The notes: generated by a model not told the origin, from the letters alone. Counted from the first letter of the stretch, positions 8,289 to 54,069 are shown. The stretch: DNA of 64,000 nt from Fibrobacterota bacterium (GCA_043753995.1 JAYUVP010000077.1:55-64054), one strand, 5' to 3'. Numbers and translations: made by a program.

Positions 8289-8290
8289 CC

Positions 8291-12891: not shown

Positions 12892-12902
12892 CCTAAAACC
12901 TT

Positions 12903-13630: not shown

Positions 13631-13631
13631 T

Positions 13632-15952: not shown

Positions 15953-15967
15953 CCCATAAAAAAACAA

Positions 15968-18518: not shown

Positions 18519-18526
18519 GAGTCGCA

Positions 18527-19054: not shown

Positions 19055-19487
19055 AAAAACGCAGCCCGCTGCGCCCAAGCCGGAGAAAGATTTGTCACCG
19101 GCGGAATGGGACGAGGTGAAAAACGTTTTCTCTGGCTACTTCGGCAGCCTCGAGCTTTTGGTTGATGGCTATCAAATTTCTTTGCAGAGGTCACTTTACT
19201 CCAAGAACCGCCTATGCGTGATGACTTATGTCGATGGGGCGTGGAAAGGTATTTGGGATAAGAATTCGCCGCAGTGCATTAAATTCGCTCGGCGAAAATT
19301 TTTACCCCGTTATAGTAAGGCGGACATTCAGAAATTAAAACGATCGTATAGCAAGAAAGATTTTGTTGGCTATGAATTTGAGGCGAAAGGCTTCACGGTT
19401 TATCAGCCGACTTGGTTTTCATTCAATGAACTTCGGCGGCATTTCCGGGCCAATAACAAATCGCTGGAATTGGTCAAGAAGGATTGA
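19029..19487 (+). CDS. hypothetical early protein, paralog A
   Basis: 152 aa. Clearly related to the next gene (LSPAEWDEVKNVFSGYFGSLELLVDGY / ...KSLELVKKD). Confidence 0.45.
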   Translation: MMGKTMTAKKTQPAAPKPEKDLSPAEWDEVKNVFSGYFGSLELLVDGYQISLQRSLYSKNRLCVMTYVDGAWKGIWDKNSPQCIKFARRKFLPRYSKADIQKLKRSYSKKDFVGYEFEAKGFTVYQPTWFSFNELRRHFRANNKSLELVKKD

Positions 19488-19490
19488 ACC

Positions 19491-19895
19491 TTGCGCCTAT
19501 ATCGCAACCACATGGAGCGCGACTTAAGCGCGGGCGAATGGGCGAAAATCGAAACCCTATTCGTTCGCAATTTTGGCGAGGTCAAGCTTGTCGCCGATGG
19601 ATGCTTTGTGGTTTTTCGGCGCGAAATCAAAGGGCCAGACCACGGCAAGGTTATGGCTTATCCTGGTCGAATAATCCCAGGCGACCACTCCTCTTGCCCG
19701 TTGCCTTGGAAGTTTTTTCGGCAGCGATATACTCAGCGGGATCGCTTTTCGACTATTCGCATGTGGCGCGGACGATATCGCTCGTATGGGTCCATTTTTA
19801 CGCCCTGGTGGTGCTCCTATACCAGCCTCCGGGCGCACCTTAAGCGCCATTGCAAATCACTCGAATTGGTTTCAAGCTTCGACGTTGTGGTCTAA
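19491..19895 (+). CDS. hypothetical early protein, paralog B
   Basis: 134 aa. LSAGEWAKIETLFVRNFGEVKLVADGC / ...KSLELVSSFD aligns with the upstream gene. Confidence 0.45.
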   Translation: MRLYRNHMERDLSAGEWAKIETLFVRNFGEVKLVADGCFVVFRREIKGPDHGKVMAYPGRIIPGDHSSCPLPWKFFRQRYTQRDRFSTIRMWRGRYRSYGSIFTPWWCSYTSLRAHLKRHCKSLELVSSFDVVV

Positions 19896-28900: not shown

Positions 28901-29130
28901 ACGGCACCGGCATAGGTGGTGGTGACCGTAATGGTGGGTGGATTGACGGCGGGAAATTCACGCACGCCCAAAAACCCGAAAGACACGGCACCAAGCACCA
29001 ATAAAAAAACGGACATGACCAGAGTGAGCACAGGCCGCCTTATGCACAAGGCACTCAAAGTGTTGCGCGAAGCTGCGTCTAGCTGGGCCTCTTTTTCAGG
29101 ATCCATCTGATTCAATGCGTCTTGCTGCAT
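25939..29130 (-). CDS. RND efflux permease (AcrB/HAE1-like)
   Basis: About 1060 aa with 12-TM RND architecture. No stop codon precedes the OMF-like region, so the boundary is inferred from typical RND length. Confidence 0.75.
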
Positions 29131-37418: not shown

Positions 37419-39764
37419 ATGCCCTATTTATCTACCCGTCAAGCCCTCTTTTGGCTGAGCCTATTTTGTGGATTTTTTTGCTTCTTGCATTGTTCTGATC
37501 AAGGGCCGGCCACCGAGGAATATCTCACCTTCGATCTCAAGGACTCCTTAACCCTTTTTGATAGTGTCCAAATTGAATTGGTGAATCCCGACAATCCCAA
37601 TCAGGTTTACCAAGTCATACACGCGGGAAAACTAACCGACCCCACTTTGAACCATGCCAAGATCAAGGTTGCAATTCCGGGAAGCCCCTCCTATGTGATT
37701 CGCGTGCGCGGATGGATCGAGCAGGAGCTGGGCTGGGACATGCTCATCGTGAATGTGAACGGAAAAAATGTGGTGGTTAGTACCGCCTTGCCTCCCGTTC
37801 GACCTTATTTGGTGGACTTGGCGCAAATCAATCCTTCGGCGGGAACCCTGGAACCCGAATTTCAACCAGGTCGTGTAACCTATAGCCTGCCCATAGAAAT
37901 GCTCACTGATAGCCTTAGCCTCAAGGCCATCCCTGCCGATAATCGTGCGACGGTCACTATACGGAAAGGGCTCACGAATTTAGGCGGCGATTCGATTCGC
38001 ATGGCGGTTCCGGAAGGCAGTACGGAATTGACCGTCGATGTTTCCAATAAAGGCGATAAAAAGTCCGCCTACCGCATCACGGTATTAAGGCCCAATATTC
38101 CCGAACCTCGTTTGCGTAACCTGAAGGTTTCGGTCGGAACCTTGATGCCCTCCTTCAATGCCGAGGGAAATTGGTATTCCATGACCTTGCCCGATTCGGT
38201 GACGCGCCTTTCTTTTCCCGAATTTGTGCTCGACACCTTTGTCACCGCCATTGTCGGAGGCGACACCTTACAAAGGGGACAAAAACCGAACTCGGTGAAT
38301 CTGGTAACCGGTCCGAATGACATCAAAATCCGCGTATTCACCGGTCACAAATTTATGGATTATGTGCTTTCCATAACCGTTTTGGATGCACCTAAAATCG
38401 ATACCGTTGATACAAATGCGCCCCCACCGGTAAAAAATACACCTCCTCCCCGCTTGCTGGATTTGGAAATTCGCGAAGGAGCCATTTTACCGCTATTCAA
38501 TGACTTGACCTATCAATATGCCCTCACGGTGGGAGACAGCATTGAGGAGCTTCATTTCAAATCGCTTAAAGCGGACAGCTTTCAAGCAATCGTAATCTTG
38601 GGCGACACACTCTATGAAGGTGATTTACCCGATCCAATACCCATTGCGGAGGGATCGAATACCTTACGCATTTCGGCTATCAATGCTAAGGGCAAGGACA
38701 CCACCTATGTTCTCCATGTCACCCGCAAAGCGAAGCTCAGCTTTATGGGTTATAAGTATTCGGCCCGCATTCAATTAAATACCACGGCCACCGGTGCCAA
38801 TATCGGCACTCGCATCCTAGGCTTTGCCGTACCCATTCGCCTTCACCGCAATAATTTCAATTTCGCAACCTCCATTGCCGAAGGGCAGGATTTGCGTGTT
38901 TTCACTCCCGAAGGGAAGCCCCTGCCATTTGAAATCGAAAACTGGGATTCCGCAGGCAAAGAGGCCGCTCTCTGGGTTCGCTTTGACACCCTAGCAGCCA
39001 ATACCCAAAAGGATATGGCTTATCTCTGCTGGGGCAGCGACACCGTGAATTCATTAAGCCAACCTGCCGCGGTCTTTCCTCCTTCCGATGAATTCGCTGC
39101 GGTTTGGCATATGGGGAATGGCTTTGTAGACGCAACGGGGAATGGCAATACCGGCGCGGCTCAAGGCGGGGCTACCGCTTCGAATTCCGGGCTTCTTGGC
39201 CAGGCCCTCTTTTGCGACAGCGCAAGCGCCTTGGCCCAAGGCGTGAATTTTGGAAATAGCGCTAGTTTGAGTTCACTTACCACGGCCATACAAGTCGAAG
39301 GCTGGGTGAAGAGTAAACAGTTCAATATCGCAGCCTCGGTATTTAGGCATGAGTGGCATTTTAATGCTTTACGTCTTTTACCTAATGGCGGAGCGGCGAG
39401 CAGCTTCTACAATCTTTTTACAGATACATCCCAAGCCATGGACAAGCAAAAAAAAACGGAGTTTCCTTGGCGCGGAACCTGGAATGATAATGCTTGGCAT
39501 TATTTTGTGGCCCAATACGATGCCAATATTGGACTTTTCCTTTACTGGGACGGCAAGCTTAGCGCTACCCTTGGCGGCCAAGGAGGCCTCTTGGCCGCCA
39601 CCACAAAACCCTTTATGGTTGGCCTATCCGAAAGCGGAGATCAGCCCTTTCACGGCACGGTGGACGAAATACGTGTGAGCAAGGTCGCCCGCTCGGCAGC
39701 CTGGATTCAGCTTAACTATGAATCGCAAAAGCCTGATTCAAAACTGGTCACCGTCATTCCCTAA
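37419..39764 (+). CDS. large exported protein with cadherin-like beta-sandwich repeats and C-terminal LamG-like (concanavalin-type) domain
   Basis: Repeated L.NL.VS.GTL.P.F....Y motifs. C-terminal FHGTVDEIRVSKVARSAAWI is typical of the Laminin_G_3 domain. Confidence 0.55.
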   Translation: MPYLSTRQALFWLSLFCGFFCFLHCSDQGPATEEYLTFDLKDSLTLFDSVQIELVNPDNPNQVYQVIHAGKLTDPTLNHAKIKVAIPGSPSYVIRVRGWIEQELGWDMLIVNVNGKNVVVSTALPPVRPYLVDLAQINPSAGTLEPEFQPGRVTYSLPIEMLTDSLSLKAIPADNRATVTIRKGLTNLGGDSIRMAVPEGSTELTVDVSNKGDKKSAYRITVLRPNIPEPRLRNLKVSVGTLMPSFNAEGNWYSMTLPDSVTRLSFPEFVLDTFVTAIVGGDTLQRGQKPNSVNLVTGPNDIKIRVFTGHKFMDYVLSITVLDAPKIDTVDTNAPPPVKNTPPPRLLDLEIREGAILPLFNDLTYQYALTVGDSIEELHFKSLKADSFQAIVILGDTLYEGDLPDPIPIAEGSNTLRISAINAKGKDTTYVLHVTRKAKLSFMGYKYSARIQLNTTATGANIGTRILGFAVPIRLHRNNFNFATSIAEGQDLRVFTPEGKPLPFEIENWDSAGKEAALWVRFDTLAANTQKDMAYLCWGSDTVNSLSQPAAVFPPSDEFAAVWHMGNGFVDATGNGNTGAAQGGATASNSGLLGQALFCDSASALAQGVNFGNSASLSSLTTAIQVEGWVKSKQFNIAASVFRHEWHFNALRLLPNGGAASSFYNLFTDTSQAMDKQKKTEFPWRGTWNDNAWHYFVAQYDANIGLFLYWDGKLSATLGGQGGLLAATTKPFMVGLSESGDQPFHGTVDEIRVSKVARSAAWIQLNYESQKPDSKLVTVIP

Positions 39765-40488
39765 AGGATTTGGATAGCAGGCGTCCATCGGGAAAGCGGC
39801 GCGGCTTGATAGTCCCTGCGGCTTTGGTAGCATGTTTCTGAACCCCTTTGCGCGCGAAACTTCGGCTGCGTATACCCGCGACATCGCACCAACCCTCGCT
39901 CGACAAGTCCGCGCCGCTTCCGCAAATATCTTCCGGGGCATGCCTGAAATATTGACTTATGAATTGACGAAAGGCCGCGCTATCGAGGCAATCGGAGCTC
40001 AGGGAATGCCCCCAGGCAAGAACGGCGAAGCGCGAGCGCAATAGGGTATCCGGCGCAAGGATGGCGCGTCGATCGGTGGGAGCGCAAGTCGCGCTCTCTG
40101 AAGGCAAAGTTTTAACCAAGGCGCGCAGCTGCTGCAATTCATCAGCGCATCCCTCGGGACAACGATAAAGCAAGACAATGGCGCCATGCTCCAAATTGTG
40201 TAGCCAAAAGCCGGCTGGCACCGGTTGCGAATATTCTTTGAGCGCCGCCCAAATCCCGTAGTGATTTCCCGAAACTGGGGGATATTCTGGCTGGGGAATT
40301 TGCGAGCAGGCGCTCAAATGAGCCGCCGTACGCTCCGGCGCATCAAAAACATTGAGCTTGCAAAGATTTGAGGTTTGACCCAAAACCGAAATCACTGGAG
40401 CCAGCATCAGGAATGGAAAAGTCAAGAAAATGGGGCGCAACATGTAGGACAAACCTAAGCAAAAAGAAGGGGCTCGACGCCCCTTCAC
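39754..40488 (-). CDS. exported DUF3105-like protein
   Basis: Probable start MLRPIFLTF at about 40443. LHNLEHGAIVLLY motif. Confidence 0.45.
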   Translation of the reverse strand: MKGRRAPSFCLGLSYMLRPIFLTFPFLMLAPVISVLGQTSNLCKLNVFDAPERTAAHLSACSQIPQPEYPPVSGNHYGIWAALKEYSQPVPAGFWLHNLEHGAIVLLYRCPEGCADELQQLRALVKTLPSESATCAPTDRRAILAPDTLLRSRFAVLAWGHSLSSDCLDSAAFRQFISQYFRHAPEDICGSGADLSSEGWCDVAGIRSRSFARKGVQKHATKAAGTIKPRRFPDGRLLSKSFRE

Positions 40489-40969: not shown

Positions 40970-43900
40970 TTAACCCACATGGAAATTTCCGCTTTGCTGC
41001 CAATAATTCATGGCATCGGCAAGATTGTCGCCCTCAATTTGAGTTTGACCCAGGGATTTTGCGCGCTTTTCAATTTCCTTCATGACTATACCCCGAATAA
41101 AGGAAGGGATTTTCATGGCTCGTGCCATGGCCTCTTCACTCCAGGGCATGGTCACCACCTGCTTGGCGCTGCCATCTCCCCAACTTTCATATTTATCCCC
41201 CATCACGGAAAAATCCACATTCACTTGGCCATGGGCTCGCGCCCATTTTTCCACGCGAAGACGAGTCATTTCTCGCATAAATCCTTCGGGTACGCGCTGC
41301 AAGCGAGATAAAGCGTCTTCATTCCAATACAGCATTTGCGTAGCGGAGGCGGAAGCCGCGTGGCGTTTTTCTGGGGAGAGGGCCATGAAAACCGATTTAC
41401 CGCAATTGGGGCAAGCATGGGGTTTCTCACCATCGAGGACAAGGCCACAAAGATGGCATTCCCAATGCACCGAGGCCTCAGCAATCTTTTCGGTTTCGTG
41501 TGGCTTGGCTTCGCCTAGGCCCTTGGAGGCCATGGCCTCACGCATGATTTCTCGCGCCTGGCCTAAACCCGCCTCGATGATTTCGAGGGTCACCGTGCCA
41601 AGTCCGCCTTGACGAGCATGCTTTTCAATGGTGCTCTTGGCGGCATGACGCATGAAGCCAGCAGGGACTTTTTCCAAACGCTGTAGCGCGGTCTCGGTCC
41701 AAAGCAATTCACCGATCGTGGTGGCGGGAGCCGGGGCGGCAGTAGGTGCAGGGGCGGCCATTGCCGAGGTTGCGGAATTCGATCCGAAGTGAGACACACC
41801 CAGCGCGGCTTCAACTCTTTCCAAGGTGACGCTGGACTGATGGTCGGCCATGGCTCGCTTCTCGATGCGATTGCGCAATTGCTGACGCTCAAAGGCATCA
41901 CTGACTTGGTCCAGCCTCCCCAAGGCTTGAGGGTCCCAACGAAGCTGACGCTCGCCCAAGGTATTCTGGGTTTCGCCAGTAGCCCCCGGAGCATCGCCCA
42001 TCAATTTGAATAGTGTTCCATCACGCCCACAAACCGGGCAGCTTTGGGGACGCAGGTTTTGATGCACATAACCGCATATGGGACAGCGATAGCTGAGAGA
42101 AATGGTGTCGAGATTGGCAGACTCGGCTTTTTGCTTGGCTTCCAAATTGAGCCCCATGCGCGCCAAGGCTTCGGCGGGCAAAATGGCCTTGAGGGCGGCA
42201 TGCAATATCGCCTCACTGACCACGGTATGGCCTTCGGCAATGCAATAATTCGCGATGGCCTTCATAGCCATAGGCCTCGCCATGGCAGGAACACCCTCCA
42301 GTTTGGCCTTGGCCTCGACCGTCCAAGCCACGGTCTCTTCGGCTTGAAATTCCACTGGAGGCTTGGCCTTGGACTCGGTCACCAAAACATTGAAACCGCA
42401 TTGACGCAAAATATTTTCGGTATTGCTGCCTAGGTCCATGCCTTCTTCGCTATGAAATCCGGTTCGCCCAAGCACCACCAACCAAGGCTGTAGGCTCTCG
42501 GTGAATTGCAGGATTTTTTCGAAAGGCTTGCCGTCCAGCAGGCGAGTCTCCACGGTGAGGTTTTCGCGTTCGGCGAGCCGCGCTGCGATATTCAGATAGC
42601 TCTGATAAATTTTAGCGAGGCCCGAATCGATAATGTCCTCATGCAGCTTTTCCTGCTCTTCGAACTTGAAAACCTTTCGGGCTTTATCGGTTAACGCGGT
42701 ATTCAAGCTCTTGAACATGGCATAGTGAAAATAAGGATCGAATGCGGACACCGCAATAATGCGCTTGCCGAAAGCTTTGGCGAGGGCAAAGGCACGGTAC
42801 AATCCACCCCAACTGCGCTCGCTACCGTCTAAACAAACAACGATTGCGTCGCCATGATTTTCTTCCTCGGTCCGCTTGACCACGAGAAAATCGCGGGCCA
42901 CGCGGCGCAAGGTGCGCTCGGTCACGGATCCCAATTGCGAACGCCCCACGCGGCCAATGCCGAAGCCTCCGAAGGCGATTAAGTCATGCGAATGGCCATT
43001 GATGTCCTCGACCAGCTTTTGCCAGTTTTTTCCTTCAAGGGAAACGGGTACATAGCTCAGGCCTTCGCGCGCACAGGCTTTGGCCATGACTTCCAAATAG
43101 GAATCCGTGATGAGTTCCAACCCTTTAGTGATCAAGCTATCGTGAATTTTCCTTTGCTTCTCCAATTCCTGCTCTTGCTGATATTCTGGAGGCAAACCAC
43201 CTTCCATGGCACGGAAGCGATTGTCATGCATTTTCGCGGCATAGACATGGCTGCCATGCAATTTCGCGTCGAAGACCTGGCCCATTTTCACCGCGATTTC
43301 CGTTGCGGCATTTGCCAAGGGCGAGGAATCGAGCCCGACATAAACGCTACGATAGCGCGTCAAATCGACTGCTTCACCCTGTGAGTTCGAGGGCGAAGGG
43401 GATGGAGTAGGGGTCGCTGGCTTTGAAGAATGATCGGCCAAGGGAGTCGGCGCGCCTCCATGCTTCGCATCTTCATCAGGACCCTGGCGTTCCATCACTT
43501 CACGAGCTTCTCGCACCACTTGCTGGGTGATGCGTTTGAAGTCGCGACGGCGCGCATATTTTTCAATTTGCTCGGTGATGAATTGACGAATCATGCCGGG
43601 AGCGCGATTCACCGACTCCATGGCATCGGCATCCCATTCCAAACCGCCATGGCTGGGTAAATGCACGATATTGTTCGTTTTTTCAGGGACACGGAAAGGC
43701 GTTTTGTCCTGAACTTGATTTACCCAAAGGATATAGGCATGAGGAAATTCATGCTGCGCAATATGAAAGCTATCGAATTCGAACATGGTCCGCGCCAAAC
43801 GAATGAATTCATGGCGAGGATCTTCAGGGCCAATGACTTCCACGACGGTATCGACTTGAAAACTCATATAGTCCGGGGCATTCCCCGTATAATGTAAGGA

Positions 43901-44413
43901 CGCCACCGGATTGCGACGCAAATTCTGATAGGTGGTGCGCTCGAATATTTCCAAAGTCGTCAAGGCACGATAATCAATCACATCACGACGAAAATAAAAT
44001 TTGGAAACCGCCTGAATACGCTCAGCTAGCGATTCTTGCCAGGGGCGGCCCTTGGTTTTTTCCATGATGCCGCGAAAGAGGTGAATATAATGCTGCAAAT
44101 ATTGGGGCTTGGGAATGAGACCCACGCCTTTATTTGAACAGTTGAAAGGGAAATCCTTGCTTTCATTGAAGGTCACCATGACCGGTAAATGCGAGGCGTG
44201 GAAAAGGGGGGCGCCTTTCAGCAATAATTTATCGTAAACACCGCGACGCCCTTGCTCTAGCCAGGCAATGACATTTTCAGGCAAGGGCATCAAGGGCAAT
44301 TCACGCTCCCCCCCGAGTAATGGCGCGGTCACGGTATTCTCACCGACTCGAACTTGCGGCTGGGGCAAGGCCCCCCTTTCAGTATCCGTCCAAGGCAATT
44401 TCTGCGCGCTCAT
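40970..44413 (-). CDS. 1147-aa multidomain protein: N-terminal domain of unknown fold, tandem universal-stress-protein-like domains, two rubredoxin-like zinc ribbons and about five PCP_red-like repeats
   Basis: Zinc ribbons CPICGYV..CPVCG and CHLCGLV..CPNCG. Repeated W(T/N/S).EA..RL.R.P.F.R......E..A...G motif recurs at least four times. Confidence 0.5.
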   Translation of the reverse strand: MSAQKLPWTDTERGALPQPQVRVGENTVTAPLLGGERELPLMPLPENVIAWLEQGRRGVYDKLLLKGAPLFHASHLPVMVTFNESKDFPFNCSNKGVGLIPKPQYLQHYIHLFRGIMEKTKGRPWQESLAERIQAVSKFYFRRDVIDYRALTTLEIFERTTYQNLRRNPVASLHYTGNAPDYMSFQVDTVVEVIGPEDPRHEFIRLARTMFEFDSFHIAQHEFPHAYILWVNQVQDKTPFRVPEKTNNIVHLPSHGGLEWDADAMESVNRAPGMIRQFITEQIEKYARRRDFKRITQQVVREAREVMERQGPDEDAKHGGAPTPLADHSSKPATPTPSPSPSNSQGEAVDLTRYRSVYVGLDSSPLANAATEIAVKMGQVFDAKLHGSHVYAAKMHDNRFRAMEGGLPPEYQQEQELEKQRKIHDSLITKGLELITDSYLEVMAKACAREGLSYVPVSLEGKNWQKLVEDINGHSHDLIAFGGFGIGRVGRSQLGSVTERTLRRVARDFLVVKRTEEENHGDAIVVCLDGSERSWGGLYRAFALAKAFGKRIIAVSAFDPYFHYAMFKSLNTALTDKARKVFKFEEQEKLHEDIIDSGLAKIYQSYLNIAARLAERENLTVETRLLDGKPFEKILQFTESLQPWLVVLGRTGFHSEEGMDLGSNTENILRQCGFNVLVTESKAKPPVEFQAEETVAWTVEAKAKLEGVPAMARPMAMKAIANYCIAEGHTVVSEAILHAALKAILPAEALARMGLNLEAKQKAESANLDTISLSYRCPICGYVHQNLRPQSCPVCGRDGTLFKLMGDAPGATGETQNTLGERQLRWDPQALGRLDQVSDAFERQQLRNRIEKRAMADHQSSVTLERVEAALGVSHFGSNSATSAMAAPAPTAAPAPATTIGELLWTETALQRLEKVPAGFMRHAAKSTIEKHARQGGLGTVTLEIIEAGLGQAREIMREAMASKGLGEAKPHETEKIAEASVHWECHLCGLVLDGEKPHACPNCGKSVFMALSPEKRHAASASATQMLYWNEDALSRLQRVPEGFMREMTRLRVEKWARAHGQVNVDFSVMGDKYESWGDGSAKQVVTMPWSEEAMARAMKIPSFIRGIVMKEIEKRAKSLGQTQIEGDNLADAMNYWQQSGNFHVG

Positions 44414-45768
44414 GAAGCACTCCGATGAATTTGATTTTCCATATTGACTTTAGCGTTTGGCTTGGGCATGTCGGCGCGCAGCGAGCCGAGCATGGCGCGA
44501 ACAAAGGCGGGAGGTTCGGATCCGGCGTCAAAGCCCAGGCCGTATTTGGCTTGGGACTCAGCGCGATGCCTTTCCATCATAGCCACCGTGATGGGTGCTC
44601 TTTCCCGCTTGGACCTTTCTTCGAGGCGTTTTCTTACCAGTGATCGAATAAATAGAGGCAAGCGTTTGAGGCGTTCCTGCGCTTCCTGAGTCCACATCGC
44701 CTCGAATTCCCCTGCCTCTCGCAGCGGCTGAATCACAATTCCACCCTTAGGCTGATAATCGCAATTGGGATCTTCTCCCATCAGTACGCCGGTTTGCGCA
44801 AGCGCGCGGGCTCGACATCCCCCGCAAAGCAATTTGTATTCGCAGGCACCGCAACGTCCTTGCAATAGTTCCGGCTTGCGAAAGCTTTGGAACAAAACCG
44901 ATTCATCCCAGACTTTCCAAAAACCTTCGCGCAACAAATGCCCGCCGGATAATTCCATATACGGGCAGGGAGTGATATCCCCTTCCGGAGTGATGCGTGC
45001 ATAATGCGTCGCCGCGGGACAGCCGCCGCCATCATAACCTTCGGCGCGCGTGAAAGACGATTGCGCATCGGCTTCATAGAGTATGCGCTTGAAATGCGGA
45101 GTGCATCGGCTTTGCACCATGAGGCCAGGCATTTCCTTCTGAATGCGCACGATGCGCATCAAGGCTTGTTCGTACTCAGCTGGCTCCAAATCCAAGGCGG
45201 GATTGCCACGGCCCACACAAACCAAGAAAAAGAAATTCACCAAGGAAGCGCCGAGGTCTTTCGCCATCAAGGCGACATCTTCCATCTCGCCATGATTGTG
45301 GCGTGTGACCGTGAAATGCACTTGGGCATGCACGCCATGCTTGGCACAAAGACGAATCGACTCGCAAGTCTTTTCAAAAGCACCCGTGACGCCACGAAAG
45401 GCATCATGCCCCGCGGGATGGGAAGCATCCAGGGAAATTCCGGCGCCTTGCAAGCCGGCCTCTTTCAAAGCGAGCAAGCGTTCTTCATTCAGCAAAAGGC
45501 CATTGGTGCCGAGGACCATGCGCAAACCCGCTTGCGAACCCGCAGAGACAAGCCGAACAAGGTCATAGCGCAGCAAAGGCTCACCACCGGTGAGGACCAC
45601 CATGGTGCCTGGCGCCCTTTCGGCCAAGGAAAGGAAGAATCGCTCCCAATCCTCAGTCGATAATTCCCCGGATCGCGTCGCCATACGCGAATTCGCGTCG
45701 AGATAACAATGGTGGCATGCCAGATTGCATCGTCGCGTAAGGTTGGCCGCCACCAAATAAGGCAACAT
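44410..45768 (-). CDS. radical SAM enzyme with SPASM-type auxiliary cluster domain and C-terminal PCP_red-like tail
   Basis: CNLACHHC (CxxxCxxC). Additional Cys clusters (CGACEYKLLCGGC). C-terminal WTQEAQERLKRLPLFIRSLVRKRLEE matches the repeat of the downstream giant protein. Confidence 0.7.
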   Translation of the reverse strand: MLPYLVAANLTRRCNLACHHCYLDANSRMATRSGELSTEDWERFFLSLAERAPGTMVVLTGGEPLLRYDLVRLVSAGSQAGLRMVLGTNGLLLNEERLLALKEAGLQGAGISLDASHPAGHDAFRGVTGAFEKTCESIRLCAKHGVHAQVHFTVTRHNHGEMEDVALMAKDLGASLVNFFFLVCVGRGNPALDLEPAEYEQALMRIVRIQKEMPGLMVQSRCTPHFKRILYEADAQSSFTRAEGYDGGGCPAATHYARITPEGDITPCPYMELSGGHLLREGFWKVWDESVLFQSFRKPELLQGRCGACEYKLLCGGCRARALAQTGVLMGEDPNCDYQPKGGIVIQPLREAGEFEAMWTQEAQERLKRLPLFIRSLVRKRLEERSKRERAPITVAMMERHRAESQAKYGLGFDAGSEPPAFVRAMLGSLRADMPKPNAKVNMENQIHRSAS

Positions 45769-45770: not shown

Positions 45771-46919
45771 TTAGAAATACACCTGCACGCGTCCCACGAT
45801 TTGATCCTGGTTGTCGCCGCCGACTTGAGGCTCGAAATCGTTGATGCGGTAATACAAGCCTAGTTGCACAAATTGCACGGGATAAGGCTCGACTCCTACG
45901 GTGATACGTCGCCGCCCATTATGCTCTTGCGCCCTTTTGTCGGGGGTCATCCACTCGAATACCCCCTTGAAGTTGAGGCCGCGCATGGGCAGACAATCCA
46001 CCTCGGCATAGTCCGCGATCATGTTAACGCCTTTCTTTTGAATCAGGTCACGCTCCCCAAAGACGGTGAACATGCCCATGGCGAAACCGCCGAATACACC
46101 CATGCTTGTGTTTTTAGCTCGTCTCTCCTTTACCTTGACCGGCAAGCTATAAGATCCGCCAAGGCGGAAGGTCCGCAATGCTATGGGCATTTCGCTGAAG
46201 ATGACCGATCCCACCGAGGAAATCAAATTGTCATTGGCATTGACGATGAGGGAAAGCGGGCCGGGTTCGATGCCGACTTCATAACTCATTCCGGTAGTAT
46301 TATAGGTATAGCCTGTATACTTACGCACGAAGGCTTCATCGTCCATAAGGCGAATGCCATAAGGCAATAGCATTTTACCCGCTTTGGCATAGGAATTCCA
46401 AAAGGGACTTTGCACCATGCCCCACATTTCACGCATAGCACCCGATAAGGCGCCTTGATCATAATAGAAGGTGAGAAAATCCTTTACTAAATCCACCTGA
46501 AAATAAAAGTTGGATTCTTTCACCGGAGCGGAAACAAAATCCGAGGAATAGGTTTGGGCCGAATCACCCACATTCACTGGCTTGGTTGTATAGGCCTGAG
46601 TGAAAGTCGGTTCGACGCGAAAGTTTGCGCCTACGGAAACCGAATTGGATAAGTTGGGATCAAAGCTATAAGCCTGCTTCTGGCTCTGCGCTGATTTCAT
46701 GAGCAATTGATATTGGGAGTAAATGACTCCGTATTCCGTGCGCTTGCCGCCACCGGTGCGATTGACATGGCATTGACTGCATTTGAAGCCGGTGCGCATG
46801 GCGAAATAGGGTTCGGCACTGACATTCCACGCCGCCGCCAAAACCCATCCGACGAGCCAAAACCAAACAGGACGCATTTTTTTCCCTCTCGATTTATGAA
46901 TGCCCATGCCCATATTCAT
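45771..46919 (-). CDS. exported protein with single CxxCH heme motif and beta-barrel-like C-terminus (possible outer-membrane heme protein)
   Basis: Signal peptide. CSQCH about 25 residues after the signal. Alternating hydrophobic pattern. C-terminal ..RVQVYF. Confidence 0.4.
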   Translation of the reverse strand: MNMGMGIHKSRGKKMRPVWFWLVGWVLAAAWNVSAEPYFAMRTGFKCSQCHVNRTGGGKRTEYGVIYSQYQLLMKSAQSQKQAYSFDPNLSNSVSVGANFRVEPTFTQAYTTKPVNVGDSAQTYSSDFVSAPVKESNFYFQVDLVKDFLTFYYDQGALSGAMREMWGMVQSPFWNSYAKAGKMLLPYGIRLMDDEAFVRKYTGYTYNTTGMSYEVGIEPGPLSLIVNANDNLISSVGSVIFSEMPIALRTFRLGGSYSLPVKVKERRAKNTSMGVFGGFAMGMFTVFGERDLIQKKGVNMIADYAEVDCLPMRGLNFKGVFEWMTPDKRAQEHNGRRRITVGVEPYPVQFVQLGLYYRINDFEPQVGGDNQDQIVGRVQVYF

Positions 46920-49201: not shown

Positions 49202-50716
49202 TTAAGAATTTCGGCGTAAGGTATGACGAAGGCCCCATACCACTAAAAGCTGAATCACCATGGCCAATGCTCCCGCCTTGGCGGTTGGCACCCATGGTGA
49301 TTCGGTGGCGGGAGCTTGTAGATAAAGATTATACCAGGACGTCACACCATGTTTGCGGCCCGTTTCTTTCAAGGAACCGTCCCATACCGAAAAGGCCATG
49401 GGAATAAAGGTTTCCCGCGCAAAACGCTCGCCGGTCTTTCCCTTGCGTGCATGCGTCAAAATCAAGGTCCATTCCCCTTGGTGATAGTTCGCGGCTATAG
49501 GCAAGGTATCGTCGCCTGCGCGAAAATCATTCGAGCCTTTCGCGATGAAATTACGAATGAAGCCCGAAGGCCCGCCACTCTGAGTTTGCGCCAAATCGAC
49601 AAACCACAAATCCGCAGCCAATTTTTTATCACCCATGAGGAAAAAAGGCTTGGCATTGCCCTCTATAGGCTTGGCTGCGAATTGCATGGCCACAGCATCA
49701 CTAATAGCTGTCGTGGTATCCACGGCAAGAGGAATGGGAGAATTGTTTCCCTGGGTTTCCGCCGTCATATCATGCCATTTCAGTTGAAAGGCAATGGTTA
49801 GACTGTCATAGACAGCCCGCACCTGAATGGCATTCACACCCGAAGCATAGCAGCGAGGATCTTCCAATACCTGGCCCACGACGGGGAATAAACTGGCGGT
49901 GGCTTCGACGAATAGAGAATCGCGCTGAGCCCAATCGATTTTGGCCACTGGCTTAGCAACAACGGTGATGGAATAGGGCGCCTGCGATCCCGTTGGGGAA
50001 AGCGACTGGAGGTAATCGATTAATTTCCAGCGATCCTCCACTGGAATATCTTTGGCGAAAGAAGCCATGGGGGTGCCATTGAGTCCAGTGGAAATAGTTC
50101 GGAAAAGATCTTCTCGCGAAGCGCCGCCGCGAAAAGCCCAGGGTTTATTGAGATTGGCCGGTCGAATGGGATATCCCCAATCGTCACTGAGGGTGGGAGC
50201 AGTTTCGCCATCCCCGCGCCCTTGTTGTCCATGGCAATCGAAGCATTTATTGGCCTCGAAAATTTTACGGCCCTCAGCCAAATTTGCGGAATTGAATTCA
50301 GGAATCTTGGGAATGACCAAGTGTTCGGCATGCACCGAAGTGTCGGCAAAATCCGAAGAGAAAGATTGTAAATAGGTCACAATATCTTCTACTTCATCGT
50401 CGGAAAATTGCGGCCAAGCCGGCATACCCGTATAAGGCATACCTTTCCGTATCACTCGCTTTAAATCTTCTCGCGTCGGCAATTCACCGCTGGGCGTGCT
50501 ATGAATCTTGTATATCCCCAGAGTGAAATCACGGGGCAAGGGCCGGAATCCGTCTGCGCCCACGCCTTTGCCGTCGCCGGTCTCACCATGGCATTGCGAG
50601 CACTTGCTATCATAAATCGCTTTGCCTCGATCCGATGGCGTGCCTTTCTGGGCTTGCACCAGTGACGTCGTGCCTACAATTCCAACGAAAAGCGAGAGGA
50701 AGGTTGCGATTTTCAT
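49202..50716 (-). CDS. diheme c-type cytochrome fused to a C-terminal EB_dh-like (heme-b-type) domain, with C-terminal TM anchor
   Basis: CSQCH and CFDCH motifs. About 250-aa C-terminal domain. Terminal hydrophobic helix. Confidence 0.55.
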   Translation of the reverse strand: MKIATFLSLFVGIVGTTSLVQAQKGTPSDRGKAIYDSKCSQCHGETGDGKGVGADGFRPLPRDFTLGIYKIHSTPSGELPTREDLKRVIRKGMPYTGMPAWPQFSDDEVEDIVTYLQSFSSDFADTSVHAEHLVIPKIPEFNSANLAEGRKIFEANKCFDCHGQQGRGDGETAPTLSDDWGYPIRPANLNKPWAFRGGASREDLFRTISTGLNGTPMASFAKDIPVEDRWKLIDYLQSLSPTGSQAPYSITVVAKPVAKIDWAQRDSLFVEATASLFPVVGQVLEDPRCYASGVNAIQVRAVYDSLTIAFQLKWHDMTAETQGNNSPIPLAVDTTTAISDAVAMQFAAKPIEGNAKPFFLMGDKKLAADLWFVDLAQTQSGGPSGFIRNFIAKGSNDFRAGDDTLPIAANYHQGEWTLILTHARKGKTGERFARETFIPMAFSVWDGSLKETGRKHGVTSWYNLYLQAPATESPWVPTAKAGALAMVIQLLVVWGLRHTLRRNS

Positions 50717-51525
50717 TCCACCTCCTCCATGGCACGCGGCTTTAAGCCGGTATAGTCATACAGAAAAAGAATGACATCCCACATTTCTCCTTCACTCAAT
50801 TTGTCTTCCCATGCCGGCATAGCGCTATTCCAAGGCGTGCTCTCATCGGGCAAGCCGGGACCTCCTTTGGCGATGCGCCAAAGCAAATAGGATTCCGTCA
50901 GCATGCCGATGGTGGCCGGATCATTCAAGTTAGCGGGAATGGGATCGAAACCATGGCCATGCAGACCATCGCCTCGTAAATCATCGCCGTGACAGAAAAC
51001 ACAATTGCGATAATAAACGCCACGGCCATTCTCCACATGCTTTGAGAAAGCGCCTTTGTCCTTGCTTTCCAATTCACGATAGGGATTGTGATCGCGCATA
51101 ATATCGATTTTATGTCCCCGCACTGTAATTTCTTGCGGTGGGGCAGGATGGATGGTGCGCCCGGCAGCAGGCGGTACAATTTCCGCCGTTTTTTGCTCAT
51201 ACACCGACCAAGCCTGAGAGGCAGGGAATAAAAGCAATAGGAAGACGAGAAGGGGAATCCACCGCTTTTCCAATAAAAGGGAAGCCATGCCTTGTTTGCT
51301 GCTTTGCGCCCGTGCTTTGTCCGAGGCGGCATAGAGCAATAAAGCGACCGTGAGAACGCCCATATACATGCCGCGTATCGAAGCCGGAATCGGAGGCACT
51401 ACGCCCCATTTGATCATCACCAAAAAGCCAATCCAGAAGGCCGCCAGCCATATCAAAATATTGGCACGGGTAAATCGCAATGCGAAGAGGCCAAGGCTTA
51501 CGCCTCCGATGACCCATAAATTCAT
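50713..51525 (-). CDS. polytopic membrane protein with C-terminal c-type cytochrome domain
   Basis: About 4 N-terminal TM helices, then CVFCH. Confidence 0.55.
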   Translation of the reverse strand: MNLWVIGGVSLGLFALRFTRANILIWLAAFWIGFLVMIKWGVVPPIPASIRGMYMGVLTVALLLYAASDKARAQSSKQGMASLLLEKRWIPLLVFLLLLFPASQAWSVYEQKTAEIVPPAAGRTIHPAPPQEITVRGHKIDIMRDHNPYRELESKDKGAFSKHVENGRGVYYRNCVFCHGDDLRGDGLHGHGFDPIPANLNDPATIGMLTESYLLWRIAKGGPGLPDESTPWNSAMPAWEDKLSEGEMWDVILFLYDYTGLKPRAMEEVE

Positions 51526-51532: not shown

Positions 51533-52033
51533 TCATGGCTTGGCCCCGCTCAAGGACGCGGTCTGGTATTTCAATTGGGTTTTCATATTGACGGTCGCAC
51601 TTCCACCCAAACTCTGCAAATAGGCGATGACGCAAAGAATTTCTGCATCGCTGAGCCCAACGGGTGGCTTATTGATGGTGGGCATACCTGCACTAAAGCC
51701 CGACACGAGAAAAATATTGGGCTCATAAAGGCTTTCCGCCAAATAATCCACATCACTATAACCCGGCTTGCGATGCTTGGCCGTCTCTCCCACACCCGCC
51801 AAATCTGGAAAACGTAAGGATCCGGAGGCGCCGAGAGTGTGGCATGCCATGCAGGTTCCCTTGCCTCCGACGATTTCTTGTCCGGCCGCCACCATTTCCT
51901 CAACACCCATGTCGGGATTCAGTACGCGCTCTTTAGGAGGATGCACTTCGGCTTGTGGCACCATATGCCCGACATAGGTGTAAAAAGCGGTGACCAGTAA
52001 GGTGAATAAAGCGAGTTGAATAGCGTTTTTCAT
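51533..52033 (-). CDS. membrane-anchored c-type cytochrome
   Basis: N-terminal TM. CMACH motif. Confidence 0.65.
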   Translation of the reverse strand: MKNAIQLALFTLLVTAFYTYVGHMVPQAEVHPPKERVLNPDMGVEEMVAAGQEIVGGKGTCMACHTLGASGSLRFPDLAGVGETAKHRKPGYSDVDYLAESLYEPNIFLVSGFSAGMPTINKPPVGLSDAEILCVIAYLQSLGGSATVNMKTQLKYQTASLSGAKP

Positions 52034-54069
52034 TTGTGGCCATGCTTGGGCGAATGCGAATGTTTACCGCTAAGGCTGGAAAGCCAGAACACGATGGCAA
52101 TGATGGCGAAAAAGATGAGCACGGTCACGGAAACAACATTGGCTGCATAGCCCAAAGTCGGGGTGAAGGCCTCGGGGGAGGTGTCCTTCATGACGCCGTA
52201 AACGTGCCAATGCTGACGAATGCCGGAGCGCACATAGCCCATCAAACCCATGAGCCATGTGAAACTGATGGCGATCAAGAAAAGGGCGTATTGTGCAATC
52301 GCCGGCATTTTCCCCCATCGTATTTCGCCGGTTACCTTGGCTCGCTTAAACATAAAGACATCAATTATCGTGACGGAAATCATGGCGAATAAAACCGCGA
52401 AGACCTGGGGCACGGAAAGCTTGATACGCACCGCGGCCTCGACGAAATAGCCATAGACACCGAGGGCGATAACCCAAAGCGTGGTGACAGAGAAAATCAG
52501 GAATTGAATGCGATCGCCGAGTTTCGCCCAGGAGACCGTAGCTTGAATATTACCTCGACGATAAAGCAGAAAGCTGATATAGGTGGTGAGGATGAGGATA
52601 TTCACCGCCGTGTTTTTGGCCGACATCACTCCTAATACGCCCAGCATGGGATGATGTGCGCCACCCATTTTACGGGCCTCTTCCACCGTGGCCACCAGGC
52701 TATGCGGAGTCGCCCAAACCAAAAAGCAAATTGTGATCACACCCAGCAAGTATTTAATGAAAGGCTGAAAACGCTCCGCTCCCTGGATGCGCCCCATACC
52801 CAGCCACAAATAAAAGTTGGCGCCGAGAAAAAGCACGCCGATGAGTATGGCTTGAATGATGAAGAGCCAGGAAAAGGCTCCGCCCATGAGGGTCATGCCC
52901 ATATTTTGGGAATAGGCATACATCTCCTTGCCAAGCCAATAGCCCGCAAAGGGAAGCGGTAGAAAGGAAGCGATGGCGACGAAATTGCCGATATAGCCCA
53001 TCCAATCGTAGTGAGCCTTTTCTGCTTCGGTTTTGGCGCCCAAAAATTTGAAGGCTGCATAGGCGGAGGCAATGGATCCACCGAAGGCGACATTGGCTAT
53101 CATGCGATGCACATTGATAGGCATCCAAATGAAGTTGTGAATGGCATCCCAACGGCTCACCAAGGCGCCGGATTCGGTAACGCCATTGGGTGACATCATA
53201 AAGGTGAGCCAGGCATCGGCGATGAACATGATGCCCAAACCGACGACATTCAGGCCGAGACCAAGCATCAAATGCACGCCTGGCCGAAATTTTCCCCAGC
53301 CATAGTAATAGCTGTAGAGAAAAATCGCTTCCAGGAAAAACAAACCGACATAAGGGAGAAAGGTCATATCGAAAATACCGACCAAATAATTCATGACCTT
53401 GGGATAAAGGAGAAAAAGCAGGAAGGTGAGGCCGGCGCCTAGTGAAGCGGTGAAGGAAAAACTTGTCGATAATAGCTTGGTGAATTCATAGGCGAGATCG
53501 TCGTAACGCGTGTCCTTGGTGCGATAGCCGATGAATTCAATGATCAGGGCAAATAGAGGTACGGCCAAAACAAAGGCGGCAAACATCAAATGCAATTGCG
53601 CGAATATCCATACGATGACGCGGCTATTGATTCCAGGTAGTTTCCGATATTCCGGCGTTTCTCCAGGTGCGGTGCCGGCGATGATCTTGGGTGGCTCTTC
53701 GCCCGGTTTAGGCTTATGCGCTTCCAGGATCCAAGTAACGATGACGCGAATATCTTCGTCCGAAAGGGTCGGATGGGGAATCATGGGCATGGAGCCCCAG
53801 GCCCCGCCACCCCCCTCTTTCACTTTTTTGCACAAGGCAGGAATATCCGCCGTGACGTATTTGCCCGCGATAGCTTTGAAGGAAGGACCTACGAGTTGCT
53901 TATCGGCGGTATGACAGGCAATGCAATCGCTTTTCTGCATAGCGGGTGGAGGAGGAAGCAACCCAGGCTCGGCAAAGCCCGGTCCCGCTAAGACCAGAAC
54001 AAGGAGCCAAAACAAGACACCGGCGTAAGCATGCACTCCAAAGCTGCGGCGAATAAAACTCATTGCCAA
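52030..54069 (-). CDS. c-type cytochrome domain fused to a cytochrome bd-type oxidase subunit I (CydA)-like membrane protein
   Basis: N-terminal CIACH. The membrane part aligns by eye with E. coli CydA at helix 1 (QLHLMF vs MYHF), FLEAIFLYSYYYGW vs FLESTFVGLFFFGW, and HLMLG..W..MMSPNG vs HMCV..W..MQNP. Confidence 0.6.
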   Translation of the reverse strand: MAMSFIRRSFGVHAYAGVLFWLLVLVLAGPGFAEPGLLPPPPAMQKSDCIACHTADKQLVGPSFKAIAGKYVTADIPALCKKVKEGGGGAWGSMPMIPHPTLSDEDIRVIVTWILEAHKPKPGEEPPKIIAGTAPGETPEYRKLPGINSRVIVWIFAQLHLMFAAFVLAVPLFALIIEFIGYRTKDTRYDDLAYEFTKLLSTSFSFTASLGAGLTFLLFLLYPKVMNYLVGIFDMTFLPYVGLFFLEAIFLYSYYYGWGKFRPGVHLMLGLGLNVVGLGIMFIADAWLTFMMSPNGVTESGALVSRWDAIHNFIWMPINVHRMIANVAFGGSIASAYAAFKFLGAKTEAEKAHYDWMGYIGNFVAIASFLPLPFAGYWLGKEMYAYSQNMGMTLMGGAFSWLFIIQAILIGVLFLGANFYLWLGMGRIQGAERFQPFIKYLLGVITICFLVWATPHSLVATVEEARKMGGAHHPMLGVLGVMSAKNTAVNILILTTYISFLLYRRGNIQATVSWAKLGDRIQFLIFSVTTLWVIALGVYGYFVEAAVRIKLSVPQVFAVLFAMISVTIIDVFMFKRAKVTGEIRWGKMPAIAQYALFLIAISFTWLMGLMGYVRSGIRQHWHVYGVMKDTSPEAFTPTLGYAANVVSVTVLIFFAIIAIVFWLSSLSGKHSHSPKHGHK

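Follow-up and report, generated by a model that had tools for sequence, protein, structure and literature searches.

What does a radical SAM enzyme do beside a giant protein that public databases annotate only as "universal stress protein"? Two such genes overlap on the minus strand of the 64,000-nt stretch of Fibrobacterota DNA analyzed here (the window). The upstream partner (44410..45768, 452 aa) encodes a radical SAM/SPASM enzyme with a C-terminal PCP_red domain, referred to as rSAM, and the downstream gene (40970..44413, 1147 aa) a cytoplasmic multidomain protein. The 4-nt overlap described in the original prediction is seen directly in the sequence as ATGA, joining the end of the rSAM gene to the start of its partner. 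Both genes lie towards the distal (3′) end of an operon of 12 minus-strand genes that codes for 10 CxxCH sites and b-haem domains, and theirs are its only cytoplasmic products. Operon gene 1 (52030..54069, minus strand, 679 aa) encodes a cytochrome bd-like subunit I with an N-terminal cytochrome c fusion (Pfam Cytochrom_C and Cyt_bd_oxida_I, 71.7 bits); the Cyt_bd_oxida_I match is partial, covering profile positions 2-245 of 418, and this CydA homolog is both fused to and flanked by cytochromes c. A dihaem cytochrome c fused to a haem-b-binding EB_dh domain (49202..50716, minus strand) was identified by Pfam and synteny. In OR-N-type bd-like oxidase operons (Murali et al. preprint), the CydA homolog has no quinol site and is encoded together with alternative electron donors, cytochromes c. 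The pair had been placed at the head of a cytochrome-rich island; the cytochrome-rich operon is real, also in many other lineages, but the pair sits at its tail. A haem-biosynthesis gene was not found in the window.

The Pfam architecture of rSAM is Radical_SAM, SPASM and PCP_red. Its radical SAM core (residues 9-166, 45271..45744, minus strand; PF04055, 86.5 bits) contains CX3CX2C at C14/C18/C21, a motif kept in 117/120 relatives. The following 8-Cys SPASM region (C222, 250, 268, 306, 309, 315, 318 and 336; 44761..45105, minus strand) exactly matches the full SPASM motif specific to AhbD, CX20-33CX17CX36-37CX2CX5CX2CX17-35C (PMC10452713), as do all 79 of 79 locus orthologs and 100 of the 120 database relatives; two auxiliary [4Fe-4S] sites are predicted from it. 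AhbD (TIGR04545) and NirJ2 (TIGR04055) were the top two models for rSAM and for five distant members of its clade (256-330 bits), while AhbC, NirJ and NirJ1 models reached only 150-186 bits on the same enzymes, and rSAM aligns to both top models over their full length (1-339/339). Judged by motifs and profiles, rSAM is thus an AhbD/NirJ2-type haem side-chain enzyme with a predicted substrate. All AhbD/NirJ2 scores, those with TIGR04545 included (277.8 bits for rSAM, 270-317 bits for the five distant members), stay well under the equivalog cut-off of 500, so that rSAM is described as AhbD-like rather than filed as AhbD; they mark a distinct clade whose substrate could differ.

For organisms using the coproporphyrin pathway, AhbD is the accepted coproheme decarboxylase that works without O2 (PMC13564367, PMC7242693). 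AhbD/NirJ2 enzymes, which convert Fe-coproporphyrin III to haem b, have in common with rSAM the CX3CX2C motif, an identical 8-Cys spacing and a cytoplasmic location. Canonical AhbD, however, lacks PCP_red, whereas members of the rSAM clade always carry one to three C-terminal copies. They are also, unlike AhbD, always paired with a Usp-PCP_red protein and often with proteins that join the N-terminal domain of the giant protein to PCP_red or consist of PCP_red only, and their genes occur in bd-like oxidase operons, whereas AhbD genes occur in ahbABC clusters. In rSAM itself, the PCP_red domain (residues 358-402, 44563..44697, minus strand) scores 30.9 bits, just below the GA of 32.5. PF08369 is nevertheless present in 120/120 top family members, and the AF2 model folds residues 361-410 into three helices (pLDDT 86-95), the fold of the solved domain 2kru, between a linker (351-360, pLDDT ~69) and a less confident tail (411-452, pLDDT 47-68). 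The proposal that the C-terminal tail of the enzyme bears the motif repeated in its partner is thereby borne out.

The giant protein, whose features all lie on the minus strand, is built in the order N-domain, PCP_red, Usp, Usp, PCP_red, Cys4, PCP_red, PCP_red, Cys4, PCP_red, PCP_red, and has neither signal peptide, TM segment nor CxxCH. PCP_red matches six stretches (Pfam E 6.7e-52, 173.7 bits vs GA 32.5), which confirms the identity of the repeats, predicted to number at least four or five, fixes their count at six and rules out a low-complexity artefact. Repeat 1 comprises residues 258-305 (43499..43642), repeat 2 residues 695-741 (42191..42331), repeat 3 residues 824-871 (41801..41944), repeat 4 residues 903-950 (41564..41707), repeat 5 residues 1028-1075 (41189..41332) and repeat 6 residues 1089-1136 (41006..41149), with weak PDB matches of repeat 4 to BchB (2xdq, residues 458-504) and of repeat 6 to ChlB (2ynm, residues 478-526). 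Repeat 2 is the copy common to all family members, with W697, T698, E700 and P709 invariant in the A1 alignment.

Both the two Usp domains and the two rubredoxin-like ribbons had been predicted to intersperse the repeats, and Pfam and Cys positions agree, ribbon 2 being borderline. Usp domains 1 (residues 354-520, 42854..43354) and 2 (residues 524-679, 42377..42844) match Pfam Usp (two stretches, E 2.4e-30, 106.4 bits), and each retains G-x2-G-x9-G-[ST], as G-x2-G-x9-G-S starting at G482 and G649, respectively, from which ATP binding is predicted. Each ribbon has two CxxC knuckles. Ribbon 1 (residues 775-802, 42008..42091; C777, 780, 792 and 795) matches RUBY_RBDX (38.1 bits vs GA 26.5) and rubrerythrin structures in the PDB. 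Ribbon 2 (residues 984-1008, 41390..41464; C986, 989, 1001 and 1004) is recognized by its Cys positions and by sub-threshold profiles, namely DUF7130 (34.4 bits vs GA 35) and an RCKP-type rubredoxin-like model (32.4 bits vs 45).

Residues 1-255 (43649..44413) probably form an additional PNPOx-like split beta-barrel, assigned by fold, that the original prediction lacks. The assigned fold is that of the HupZ/HutZ/ChuZ/FMN-binding split barrel; identity to HupZ, HutZ, ChuZ and PNPOx-like FMN/F420 binders is only 8-17%, the domain is ~100 residues larger than the 125-aa split-barrel core, and it scores below threshold with Pfam PNPOx_N (13.8 bits here, 24-26 bits in relatives). It has joined Usp/PCP_red modules in independent fusions, with at least three different domain orders, and in other lineages it is encoded apart, by a gene of ~300 aa that also carries one PCP_red.

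To our knowledge, the only characterized instance of PCP_red is the C-terminus of BchB, which lies over the tetrapyrrole pocket of DPOR. In BchB/ChlB of dark-operative protochlorophyllide reductase (PF08369; PDB 2kru, 2xdq, 2ynm) the domain is C-terminal to a nitrogenase-like core, whereas here it is detached from such a core, occurs in up to six copies per protein on Usp, rSAM and split-barrel modules, and is found in non-phototrophs. According to PMC4071322, a helix at the BchB C-terminus covers the cavity that holds Pchlide. The giant protein itself is no DPOR subunit: NCBIfam BchB models match it with just their last ~70 positions (118 bits vs 509), and Pfam/NCBIfam profiles gave no Oxidored_nitro match in either protein of the pair. 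Tandem ATP-binding Usps of the UspFG/MJ0577 class likewise have two Usp domains, each with G-x2-G-x9-G-S; unlike in those, the Usps described here are fused to PCP_red, Cys4 and split-barrel domains and obligately linked to an rSAM gene. In NifB-NifX and NafY, a radical SAM cofactor-maker bears a small C-terminal carrier domain that is also present in separate trafficking proteins (PMC13474568). A similar synthesis-plus-carrier logic may apply to the present module, by analogy only, as there is no homology and the Nif cargo is an Fe-S cluster precursor instead of a tetrapyrrole. Literature searches on PCP_red, on bd-like oxidases with radical SAM enzymes, on Manganitrophus and on Nitrospira AhbD returned nothing relevant to this system, and no characterized system with this architecture was found, as had been supposed. 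The novelty, on our best reading, lies in the partner proteins, the enzyme being of the known AhbD/NirJ2 kind.

The association of the two genes is widely conserved. They share a locus in 75/76 informative species-level loci from about ten phylum-level lineages, which is far beyond chance and substantiates the expected co-occurrence of rSAM-PCP_red with multi-PCP_red proteins; at least 593 species carry the pair. No more than 300 nt separate the rSAM and Usp-PCP_red genes in 71/80 species-level loci; in four more, the rSAM gene lies elsewhere in the locus, and look-ups starting from rSAM found the Usp-PCP_red gene adjacent in 4/4 cases. Class II loci (Fibrobacteria, Latescibacterota, SAR324, 'Delta'/Thermodesulfobacteriota, Verrucomicrobiota, Gammaproteobacteria and others) share the synteny bd-like CydA, cytochrome c, EB_dh-cytochrome, rSAM-PCP, N-dom-PCP, Usp-PCP, with the EB_dh-cytochrome syntenic in all of them. 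In at least eight lineages, and likewise in the window, the module directly follows the operon of a putatively OR-N-type cytochrome bd-like oxidase, cytochrome c and EB_dh; bd-like subunit I homologs precede it at loci L004, L008, L012, L014, L016, L018, L028, L049 and L090-L092. In Nitrospirales and Manganitrophaceae (56/80 loci), the pair adjoins a small CopD-like membrane protein, not a bd-like oxidase. Late haem-synthesis genes at the loci examined were limited to a HemY-type proto/coproporphyrinogen oxidase at two gammaproteobacterial loci, where it overlaps the rSAM stop codon (Endoriftia, L008, 227 bits; a Piscirickettsiaceae MAG, L049, 245 bits; cut-off 97.85). An enzyme that decarboxylates coproheme without O2 would be expected to show such coupling.

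The same survey argues against treating the giant protein as an independent unit: it is a fusion specific to certain lineages (the Fibrobacterota/Latescibacterota type), with two separate genes in its place in SAR324, 'Deltaproteobacteria', Verrucomicrobiota and others. Two loci (L001 and L059) encode stand-alone PCP_red-only proteins, each with four copies. The minimal Nitrospirales version (680 aa) consists of Usp x2 and PCP_red x3 and lacks rubredoxin ribbons, so that electron relay via the ribbons cannot be universal. Likely orthologs in Nitrospira marina, assigned by length, annotation and gene order rather than by sequence, are a 699-aa 'UspA' and a 460-aa rSAM/SPASM protein encoded directly after MetK. 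Both reach high levels in the proteome irrespective of O2, the likely UspA with about 119 spectral counts, a SAM-synthetase-like level and about 3.6x that of its rSAM. Unlike stress proteins, it is not stress-induced, and its abundance and O2-independence are more in keeping with constitutive biosynthesis than with a response to stress.

We give an even chance to the reading that the gene pair works in the cytoplasm as a module that synthesizes haem and hands it on, serving the surrounding membrane and periplasmic cytochrome machinery. At its N-terminal [4Fe-4S]-SAM site (C14/C18/C21), rSAM would form a 5'-deoxyadenosyl radical to attack an iron tetrapyrrole at one of its propionate side chains, most probably converting Fe-coproporphyrin III to haem b; the electron left over would be carried off by the two auxiliary SPASM clusters. 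The giant protein may act as scaffold or carrier that docks on rSAM, possibly through PCP_red, and receives or presents the tetrapyrrole. Electron relay is a candidate role for the Cys4 centers and the split-barrel domain, and the Usp pair is a putative nucleotide-dependent gate. Weighing against this reading are the lack of haem-biosynthesis genes in the window and the Nitrospirales and Manganitrophaceae loci, where no bd-like oxidase adjoins the pair. A bolder form, which we regard as rather improbable, is that PCP_red is a general tetrapyrrole hand-off domain and that the module is an assembly line dedicated to making haem, possibly modified, and supplying it to the OR-N bd-like oxidase active site. 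If true, this would be the first known cofactor-maturation system for OR-N (Nitrospira-type) bd-like oxidases.

Unlikely, but the best placed of the alternatives, is that rSAM tailors a haem-type tetrapyrrole into a specialized cofactor for the OR-N bd-like oxidase or the EB_dh/cytochrome partners, with the PCP_red proteins as chaperones. The clade stands apart, scoring below threshold with every characterized equivalog, it sits in bd-like oxidase operons in many phyla, it has dedicated accessory proteins that are absent from canonical AhbD, and AhbC and NirJ of the same branch perform other side-chain chemistries (PMC7242693). In the Latescibacterota locus L028, moreover, a TIGR04053-family AhbD-like paralog adjoins the rSAM-PCP_red gene, and two haem-b synthases would be redundant. 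Proteobacteria on the classical pathway largely lack HemQ/AhbD (PMC5095920), so that a plain housekeeping role is improbable for the copies in Gammaproteobacteria. Similarity and Cys spacing are nevertheless specifically AhbD/NirJ2-like, not AhbC/NirJ-like, and the HemY adjacency suits the ordinary coproporphyrin route. Most carriers (Nitrospirales) have a single module far from several bd-like oxidase loci, and an unusual haem is not reported for these oxidases in the literature found.

Somewhat less probable still is that Usp-PCP_red is mainly a nucleotide- or redox-sensing regulator that switches rSAM via its PCP_red tail instead of carrying tetrapyrroles or electrons. Usp proteins as a rule bind nucleotides and act as regulators (PMC8115632), and the conservation of the ATP-binding motif in both domains, Cys4 centers that could sense redox state, a shared PCP_red as plausible homotypic interaction handle and the minimal Usp/PCP_red composition in Nitrospirales are all compatible with such a switch. 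Six to seven PCP_red copies and the four-copy PCP_red-only proteins, however, exceed what docking needs, the recurrent fusion to a flavin/haem-type split barrel points to ligand handling, and the abundance of the likely N. marina protein relative to its enzyme is unusual for a pure regulator.

The original prediction had named both cofactor and peptide maturation; the former is supported because rSAM is an AhbD/NirJ2-type tetrapyrrole enzyme, and we see little room for the latter. As a SPASM maturase, rSAM would act on a RiPP precursor or a neighboring cytochrome, with PCP_red recognizing the protein substrate. SPASM enzymes are often peptide maturases, the rSAM gene sits among secreted-protein genes, generic RiPP-maturase models match at lower scores, and SuiB, SkfB and PqqE are among its structural neighbors. 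Yet SuiB is also the nearest structure of the AhbD model itself (PMC10452713), tetrapyrrole-enzyme models score >100 bits above all peptide maturases, and the Cys spacing CX2CX5CX2C is AhbD-like. A search of the operon for the precursor ORF suggested to lie nearby yielded no plausible candidate: its genes overlap or lie 2-27 nt apart, leaving no room, and the single 301-nt gap contains random small ORFs only. Profile searches found no RRE-type domain in rSAM or the giant protein, and the gene upstream of rSAM varies by lineage, being Cyc2-like, a cytochrome or CarboxypepD_reg.

That a generic stress protein with low-complexity repeats neighbors an unrelated radical SAM enzyme by chance, as the public annotation might suggest, is refuted by synteny and can be virtually dismissed, given the Pfam E-value of the repeats, the translational coupling by the ATGA overlap and a shared locus across about ten phylum-level lineages, in which the gene set survives rearrangements and independent fusions.

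The radical-SAM/SPASM enzyme (rSAM; 45768..44410, minus strand, 452 aa) and the 1147-aa giant protein encoded behind it (44413..40970, minus strand) were delimited by ORF calling in the window, and the sequence places the rSAM stop and the giant-protein start codon in an ATGA overlap. Pfam confirmed the shared-repeat architecture of the original prediction, with PCP_red (PF08369) found in the giant protein and once in rSAM. Multiple copies in the giant protein were correctly anticipated, but their number was underestimated, as Pfam assigns six stretches (E 6.7e-52) instead of four or five. These repeats align solely to the last ~70 positions of the NCBIfam BchB models. They are accompanied by two Usp domains (E 2.4e-30), both with the ATP motif G-x2-G-x9-G-S, by a rubrerythrin-type rubredoxin-like domain at residues 775-802 and by a second, borderline zinc ribbon at residues ~984-1008, complete Cys4 knuckles being present in both ribbons. 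Residues 1-255 probably form a PNPOx-like split barrel (N-domain), a fold whose haem- or bilin-handling members include Rv2074 (9.8), KtzT-haem (9.3), HutZ (9.1), and ChuZ (8.0). Twelve N-domain relatives came from a word-indexed search, more requiring an exhaustive one.

The window rSAM combines Radical_SAM, SPASM, and a single PCP_red domain, the latter scoring 30.9 bits against a Pfam gathering score of 32.5. Its best NCBIfam models are the haem b synthase AhbD (277.8 bits, aligned over positions 1-339 of 339) and NirJ2 (256 bits); both scores lie below the respective 500-bit cut-off and well above those of AhbC, NirJ, NirJ1, and all peptide maturases. The same ranking recurs in five distant clade members (Nitrospirales, Manganitrophaceae, Gammaproteobacteria, Verrucomicrobiota, and Mariprofundaceae). 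Moreover, the full cysteine motif of Methanosarcina barkeri AhbD, CX20-33CX17CX36-37CX2CX5CX2CX17-35C (PMC10452713), is matched exactly by the window enzyme (C222...C336) and by 79/79 locus orthologs. In two gammaproteobacterial loci a gene for a HemY-type proto/coproporphyrinogen oxidase (227 and 245 bits; cut-off 97.85) overlaps the rSAM stop codon. AhbD also serves as O2-independent coproheme decarboxylase in coproporphyrin-pathway organisms devoid of AhbABC (reviewed in PMC13564367 and PMC7242693). The public gene call of the window rSAM comprises 397 aa (P0122, 100% identity, 88% coverage). Translation in this call probably begins at Met56, which would cost it the CX3CX2C cluster motif, and this start appears to be wrong, since homolog alignments of the 452-aa ORF already begin at residue 3; the dropped residues 1-55 correspond to window positions 45604-45768.

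Relatives of the giant protein number in the hundreds, every one named just “universal stress protein”, and occur in at least 593 genomes when each species is represented by a single genome. For a locus survey, ORFs were called in the best 80 loci and searched with the window proteins and the PCP_red profile. The suggested co-occurrence of rSAM-PCP_red enzymes with multi-PCP_red proteins was borne out: the rSAM-PCP_red gene lies within 300 nt of the Usp-PCP_red gene in 71/80 loci and elsewhere in the locus in four, whereas four loci are uninformative owing to nearby contig ends and only one (L046) lacks it despite sufficient flank. As Nitrospirales make up most of the 80 loci, these counts are not independent; lineages represented nonetheless include Fibrobacteria, Latescibacterota, Lentisphaeria, SAR324, “Deltaproteobacteria”, Manganitrophaceae, Mariprofundaceae, Piscirickettsiaceae, and Woeseiaceae. 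From the enzyme side, PF08369 is carried by 120/120 best rSAM relatives, and a Usp-PCP_red gene is adjacent in 4/4 look-ups (Endoriftia, Verrucomicrobiota, Thermodesulfobacteriota, and one further contig of 2.5 Mb). A chance neighbourhood of the pair is excluded. One survey contig labelled “uncultured Bifidobacteriales” (CAYNXV010000125.1, L011) harbors a Fibrobacteria-type operon with Cyc2-like, rSAM, and fused giant-protein genes, the latter product being 64% identical to the window protein; its bin assignment is probably wrong.

Two synteny types were distinguished. Class I (Nitrospirales and Manganitrophaceae, 56 of 80 loci) has the order Usp-PCP_red, rSAM-PCP_red, in some lineages a protein with four PCP_red copies, and a 150-175-aa CopD-like membrane protein, for which a HemJ-like identity was rejected, because its profile matches are confined to CopD and DUF4149. 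In Nitrospirales, a SAM synthetase gene lies directly upstream of the pair (L006/L007 5872-8455; N. marina genes 2597410679-81), with an S-adenosylhomocysteine hydrolase gene also upstream in L006; the synthetase may reflect a SAM-supply link. Class II comprises Fibrobacteria including the window, Latescibacterota, SAR324, “Delta”/Thermodesulfobacteriota, Verrucomicrobiota, and Gammaproteobacteria. Here, genes for a cytochrome bd-like subunit I, cytochromes c, and an EB_dh-cytochrome c fusion precede rSAM-PCP_red, N-domain-PCP_red, and Usp-PCP_red, often followed by a large protein with PBS-lyase-type HEAT repeats. The latter (730-835 aa) accompanies the module of rSAM and PCP_red partner genes in SAR324, “Delta”, Gammaproteobacteria, and L092 (L008 4311-6767; L004 12442-14640; also L013, L049, and L092). 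L008, L091, and L094 share a CarboxypepD_reg/fn3_3 protein. In L094, a ParA/MinD/CbiA-type P-loop ATPase with a faint NifH-family match and a 148-aa PCP_red-only protein (5615-6939) are encoded downstream of EB_dh/cytochrome c genes and ahead of a Usp-PCP_red-N-domain fusion, a pairing that, in this one locus, recalls the NifH-like BchL partner of BchB.

N-domain-PCP_red is encoded by a separate gene of ~300 aa in SAR324, “Delta”, Verrucomicrobiota, and L092, whereas in Fibrobacteria, Latescibacterota, and the Thermodesulfobacteriota locus L091 it forms one polypeptide with the Usp protein. The giant protein is thus a lineage-specific fusion of two genes conserved separately elsewhere. A 330-aa Manganitrophus neighbour was rejected as equivalent of its N-terminus, BLAST identifying it as the protein with four PCP_red copies; the true stand-alone N-domain gene was located in SAR324 and other lineages. 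A further stand-alone N-domain traced to its locus lies on a 1.2-kb contig devoid of neighbouring genes.

In the window, the pair belongs to a minus-strand operon of 12 genes running from 54069 to 39754, with intergenic distances of -4, 7, -4, 27, 301, -4, -4, 2, -4, 26, and 20 nt. Rather than heading this respiratory island, as initially proposed, rSAM and the giant protein are genes 9 and 10, in its distal part. They are preceded by a bd-like CydA fused to an N-terminal cytochrome c (52030-54069, minus strand), cytochromes c of 166 and 270 aa, an EB_dh-dihaem cytochrome c (49202-50716, minus strand), a 126-aa cytochrome c, a 317-aa dihaem cytochrome c, an SO2930-like cytochrome, and a 382-aa Cyc2-like cytochrome-porin (45771-46919, minus strand). 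A 144-aa cytochrome c follows and, 20 nt further, a DUF3105 protein with an N-terminal hydrophobic segment (39754-40488, minus strand, 94.5 bits) closes the operon; the remaining loci, many of them ending short of this position, did not show its gene. Ten CxxCH sites are distributed over nine operon products. Only rSAM and the giant protein are without signal peptide, transmembrane segment or haem-attachment site; they are the two predicted cytoplasmic products in a set that is otherwise exported and rich in haem. The profile match of the bd-like subunit I is limited to the first ~245 positions. Together with the EB_dh-dihaem cytochrome c and a membrane-anchored cytochrome c (50713-51525, minus strand) it forms a trio that is syntenic in at least eight lineages and is reminiscent of the OR-N family described by Murali et al. 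The Cyc2-like ORF, 2 nt from rSAM, begins with a signal-like N-terminus, carries its single CSQCH at residue 47, and ends in ...VQVYF; AEPYFAMRT, three residues ahead of CSQCH, deviates at two positions from the Cyc2 motif AXPXFAR[QK][TY], and the PXL motif was not found in this ORF. Its homologs among the compared loci are confined to the Fibrobacteria-type L010 and L011. Taken together with the cytochromes and bd-like oxidase, this ORF suggests that a Fibrobacterota-like organism has a chain for extracellular electron uptake or Fe(II) oxidation. A promoter and terminator scan performed no better than chance, and Rfam gave no match within 39-57 kb of the window. Just upstream of the operon, MoeA (molybdopterin molybdotransferase) is fused to a gamma-glutamyl cyclotransferase-like GGACT domain (54386-56167, minus strand), and MoaA (364 bits) follows the Usp gene in L091 (12021-13016), which may indicate a recurrent molybdenum-cofactor link or coincidence.

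To our knowledge, the BchB C-terminus is the only characterised PCP_red. It forms a lid over the protochlorophyllide-binding cavity and becomes partly unwound when the substrate binds (PMC4071322). Five tetrapyrrole signals converge on the module, namely the AhbD-type enzyme, BchB lid domain, HupZ/HutZ-type fold, HemY neighbour, and PBS-lyase-type HEAT proteins, and the module adjoins genes of proteins needing many haems. This convergence is suggestive of tetrapyrrole binding, and we give about even chances to the pair being a cytoplasmic module for haem synthesis and hand-off. The AhbD-like rSAM would most probably decarboxylate coproheme to haem b, and PCP_red-rich partners would bind to the enzyme and accept the tetrapyrrole or present it; Cys4 centres and split barrel could act as electron relays, and the Usp pair as a nucleotide gate.

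Alternatively, the enzyme might make a dedicated, perhaps modified, haem for OR-N-type oxidases. We consider this unlikely, but four points against a plain housekeeping AhbD keep it alive: the clade scores sub-threshold for AhbD/NirJ2; the module is persistently embedded in bd-like oxidase operons; it occurs in Gammaproteobacteria, as a rule without AhbD/HemQ (PMC5095920); and a TIGR04053-family AhbD-like paralog lies beside it in the Latescibacterota locus L028. This rSAM/SPASM protein (18459-19694, minus strand; 474 bits versus 395, AhbD model 343 bits) is encoded ~1 kb from the rSAM-PCP_red gene, placing two AhbD-related paralogs side by side. Two further readings are less well supported: a mainly regulatory Usp protein seems rather improbable, and a peptide or protein maturase, for which a precursor ORF was sought and found to be absent at the window locus, highly so. 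If haem synthesis and hand-off hold true, the module would fill a gap in how its carriers finish haem biosynthesis, provide the first PCP_red function outside chlorophyll synthesis and offer an experimental handle on the maturation of cytochrome bd-like oxidases. Among these carriers are Nitrospirales, with the nitrite oxidisers that dominate worldwide and comammox bacteria, the manganese-oxidising Manganitrophaceae, the iron-oxidising Mariprofundaceae, SAR324, and sulfur-oxidising symbionts of animals.

No mention of the domain combination or accessory genes was found in open-access papers and preprints, and the bd-superfamily preprint nowhere mentions radical SAM. The rSAM is a variant of the AhbD-type enzymes, and its partner proteins and bd-like oxidase link appear undescribed. 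The analysis further corrects the N-terminally truncated rSAM call and “USP” naming of the large protein in public annotation.

Expression is documented for N. marina, whose proteome supplement lists consecutive genes for methionine adenosyltransferase, a 699-aa “UspA family” protein, and a 460-aa rSAM/SPASM protein (PMC8115632). Order and sizes match the marine Nitrospirales loci L030/L031 and L006, the likely orthologs being assigned by gene order, length, and annotation, not by sequence. Average spectral counts are ~119 for “UspA” and ~33 for rSAM, with non-significant fold changes of 0.99 and 0.63 at low versus atmospheric O2 (PMC8115632). The strongly O2-induced N. marina Usps (288 and 293 aa; PMC8115632) are different proteins and were rejected as module members.

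Elsewhere in the window, a 1506-aa ORF (24610-29130, minus strand) combines an entire AcrB-type RND transporter (924 bits) with the domain of an outer-membrane efflux protein (OEP) and adjoins an HlyD-type adaptor gene; it is either an unusual fusion of inner- and outer-membrane components or results from an overlooked stop codon or a frameshift. Positions ~2100-16960 contain a Mu-like prophage or its remnant, encoding a major capsid E-like protein, large terminase, Mu portal (275 bits), Mu F, and virion morphogenesis protein, together with a Mu-type DDE transposase and a MuB-like AAA protein.
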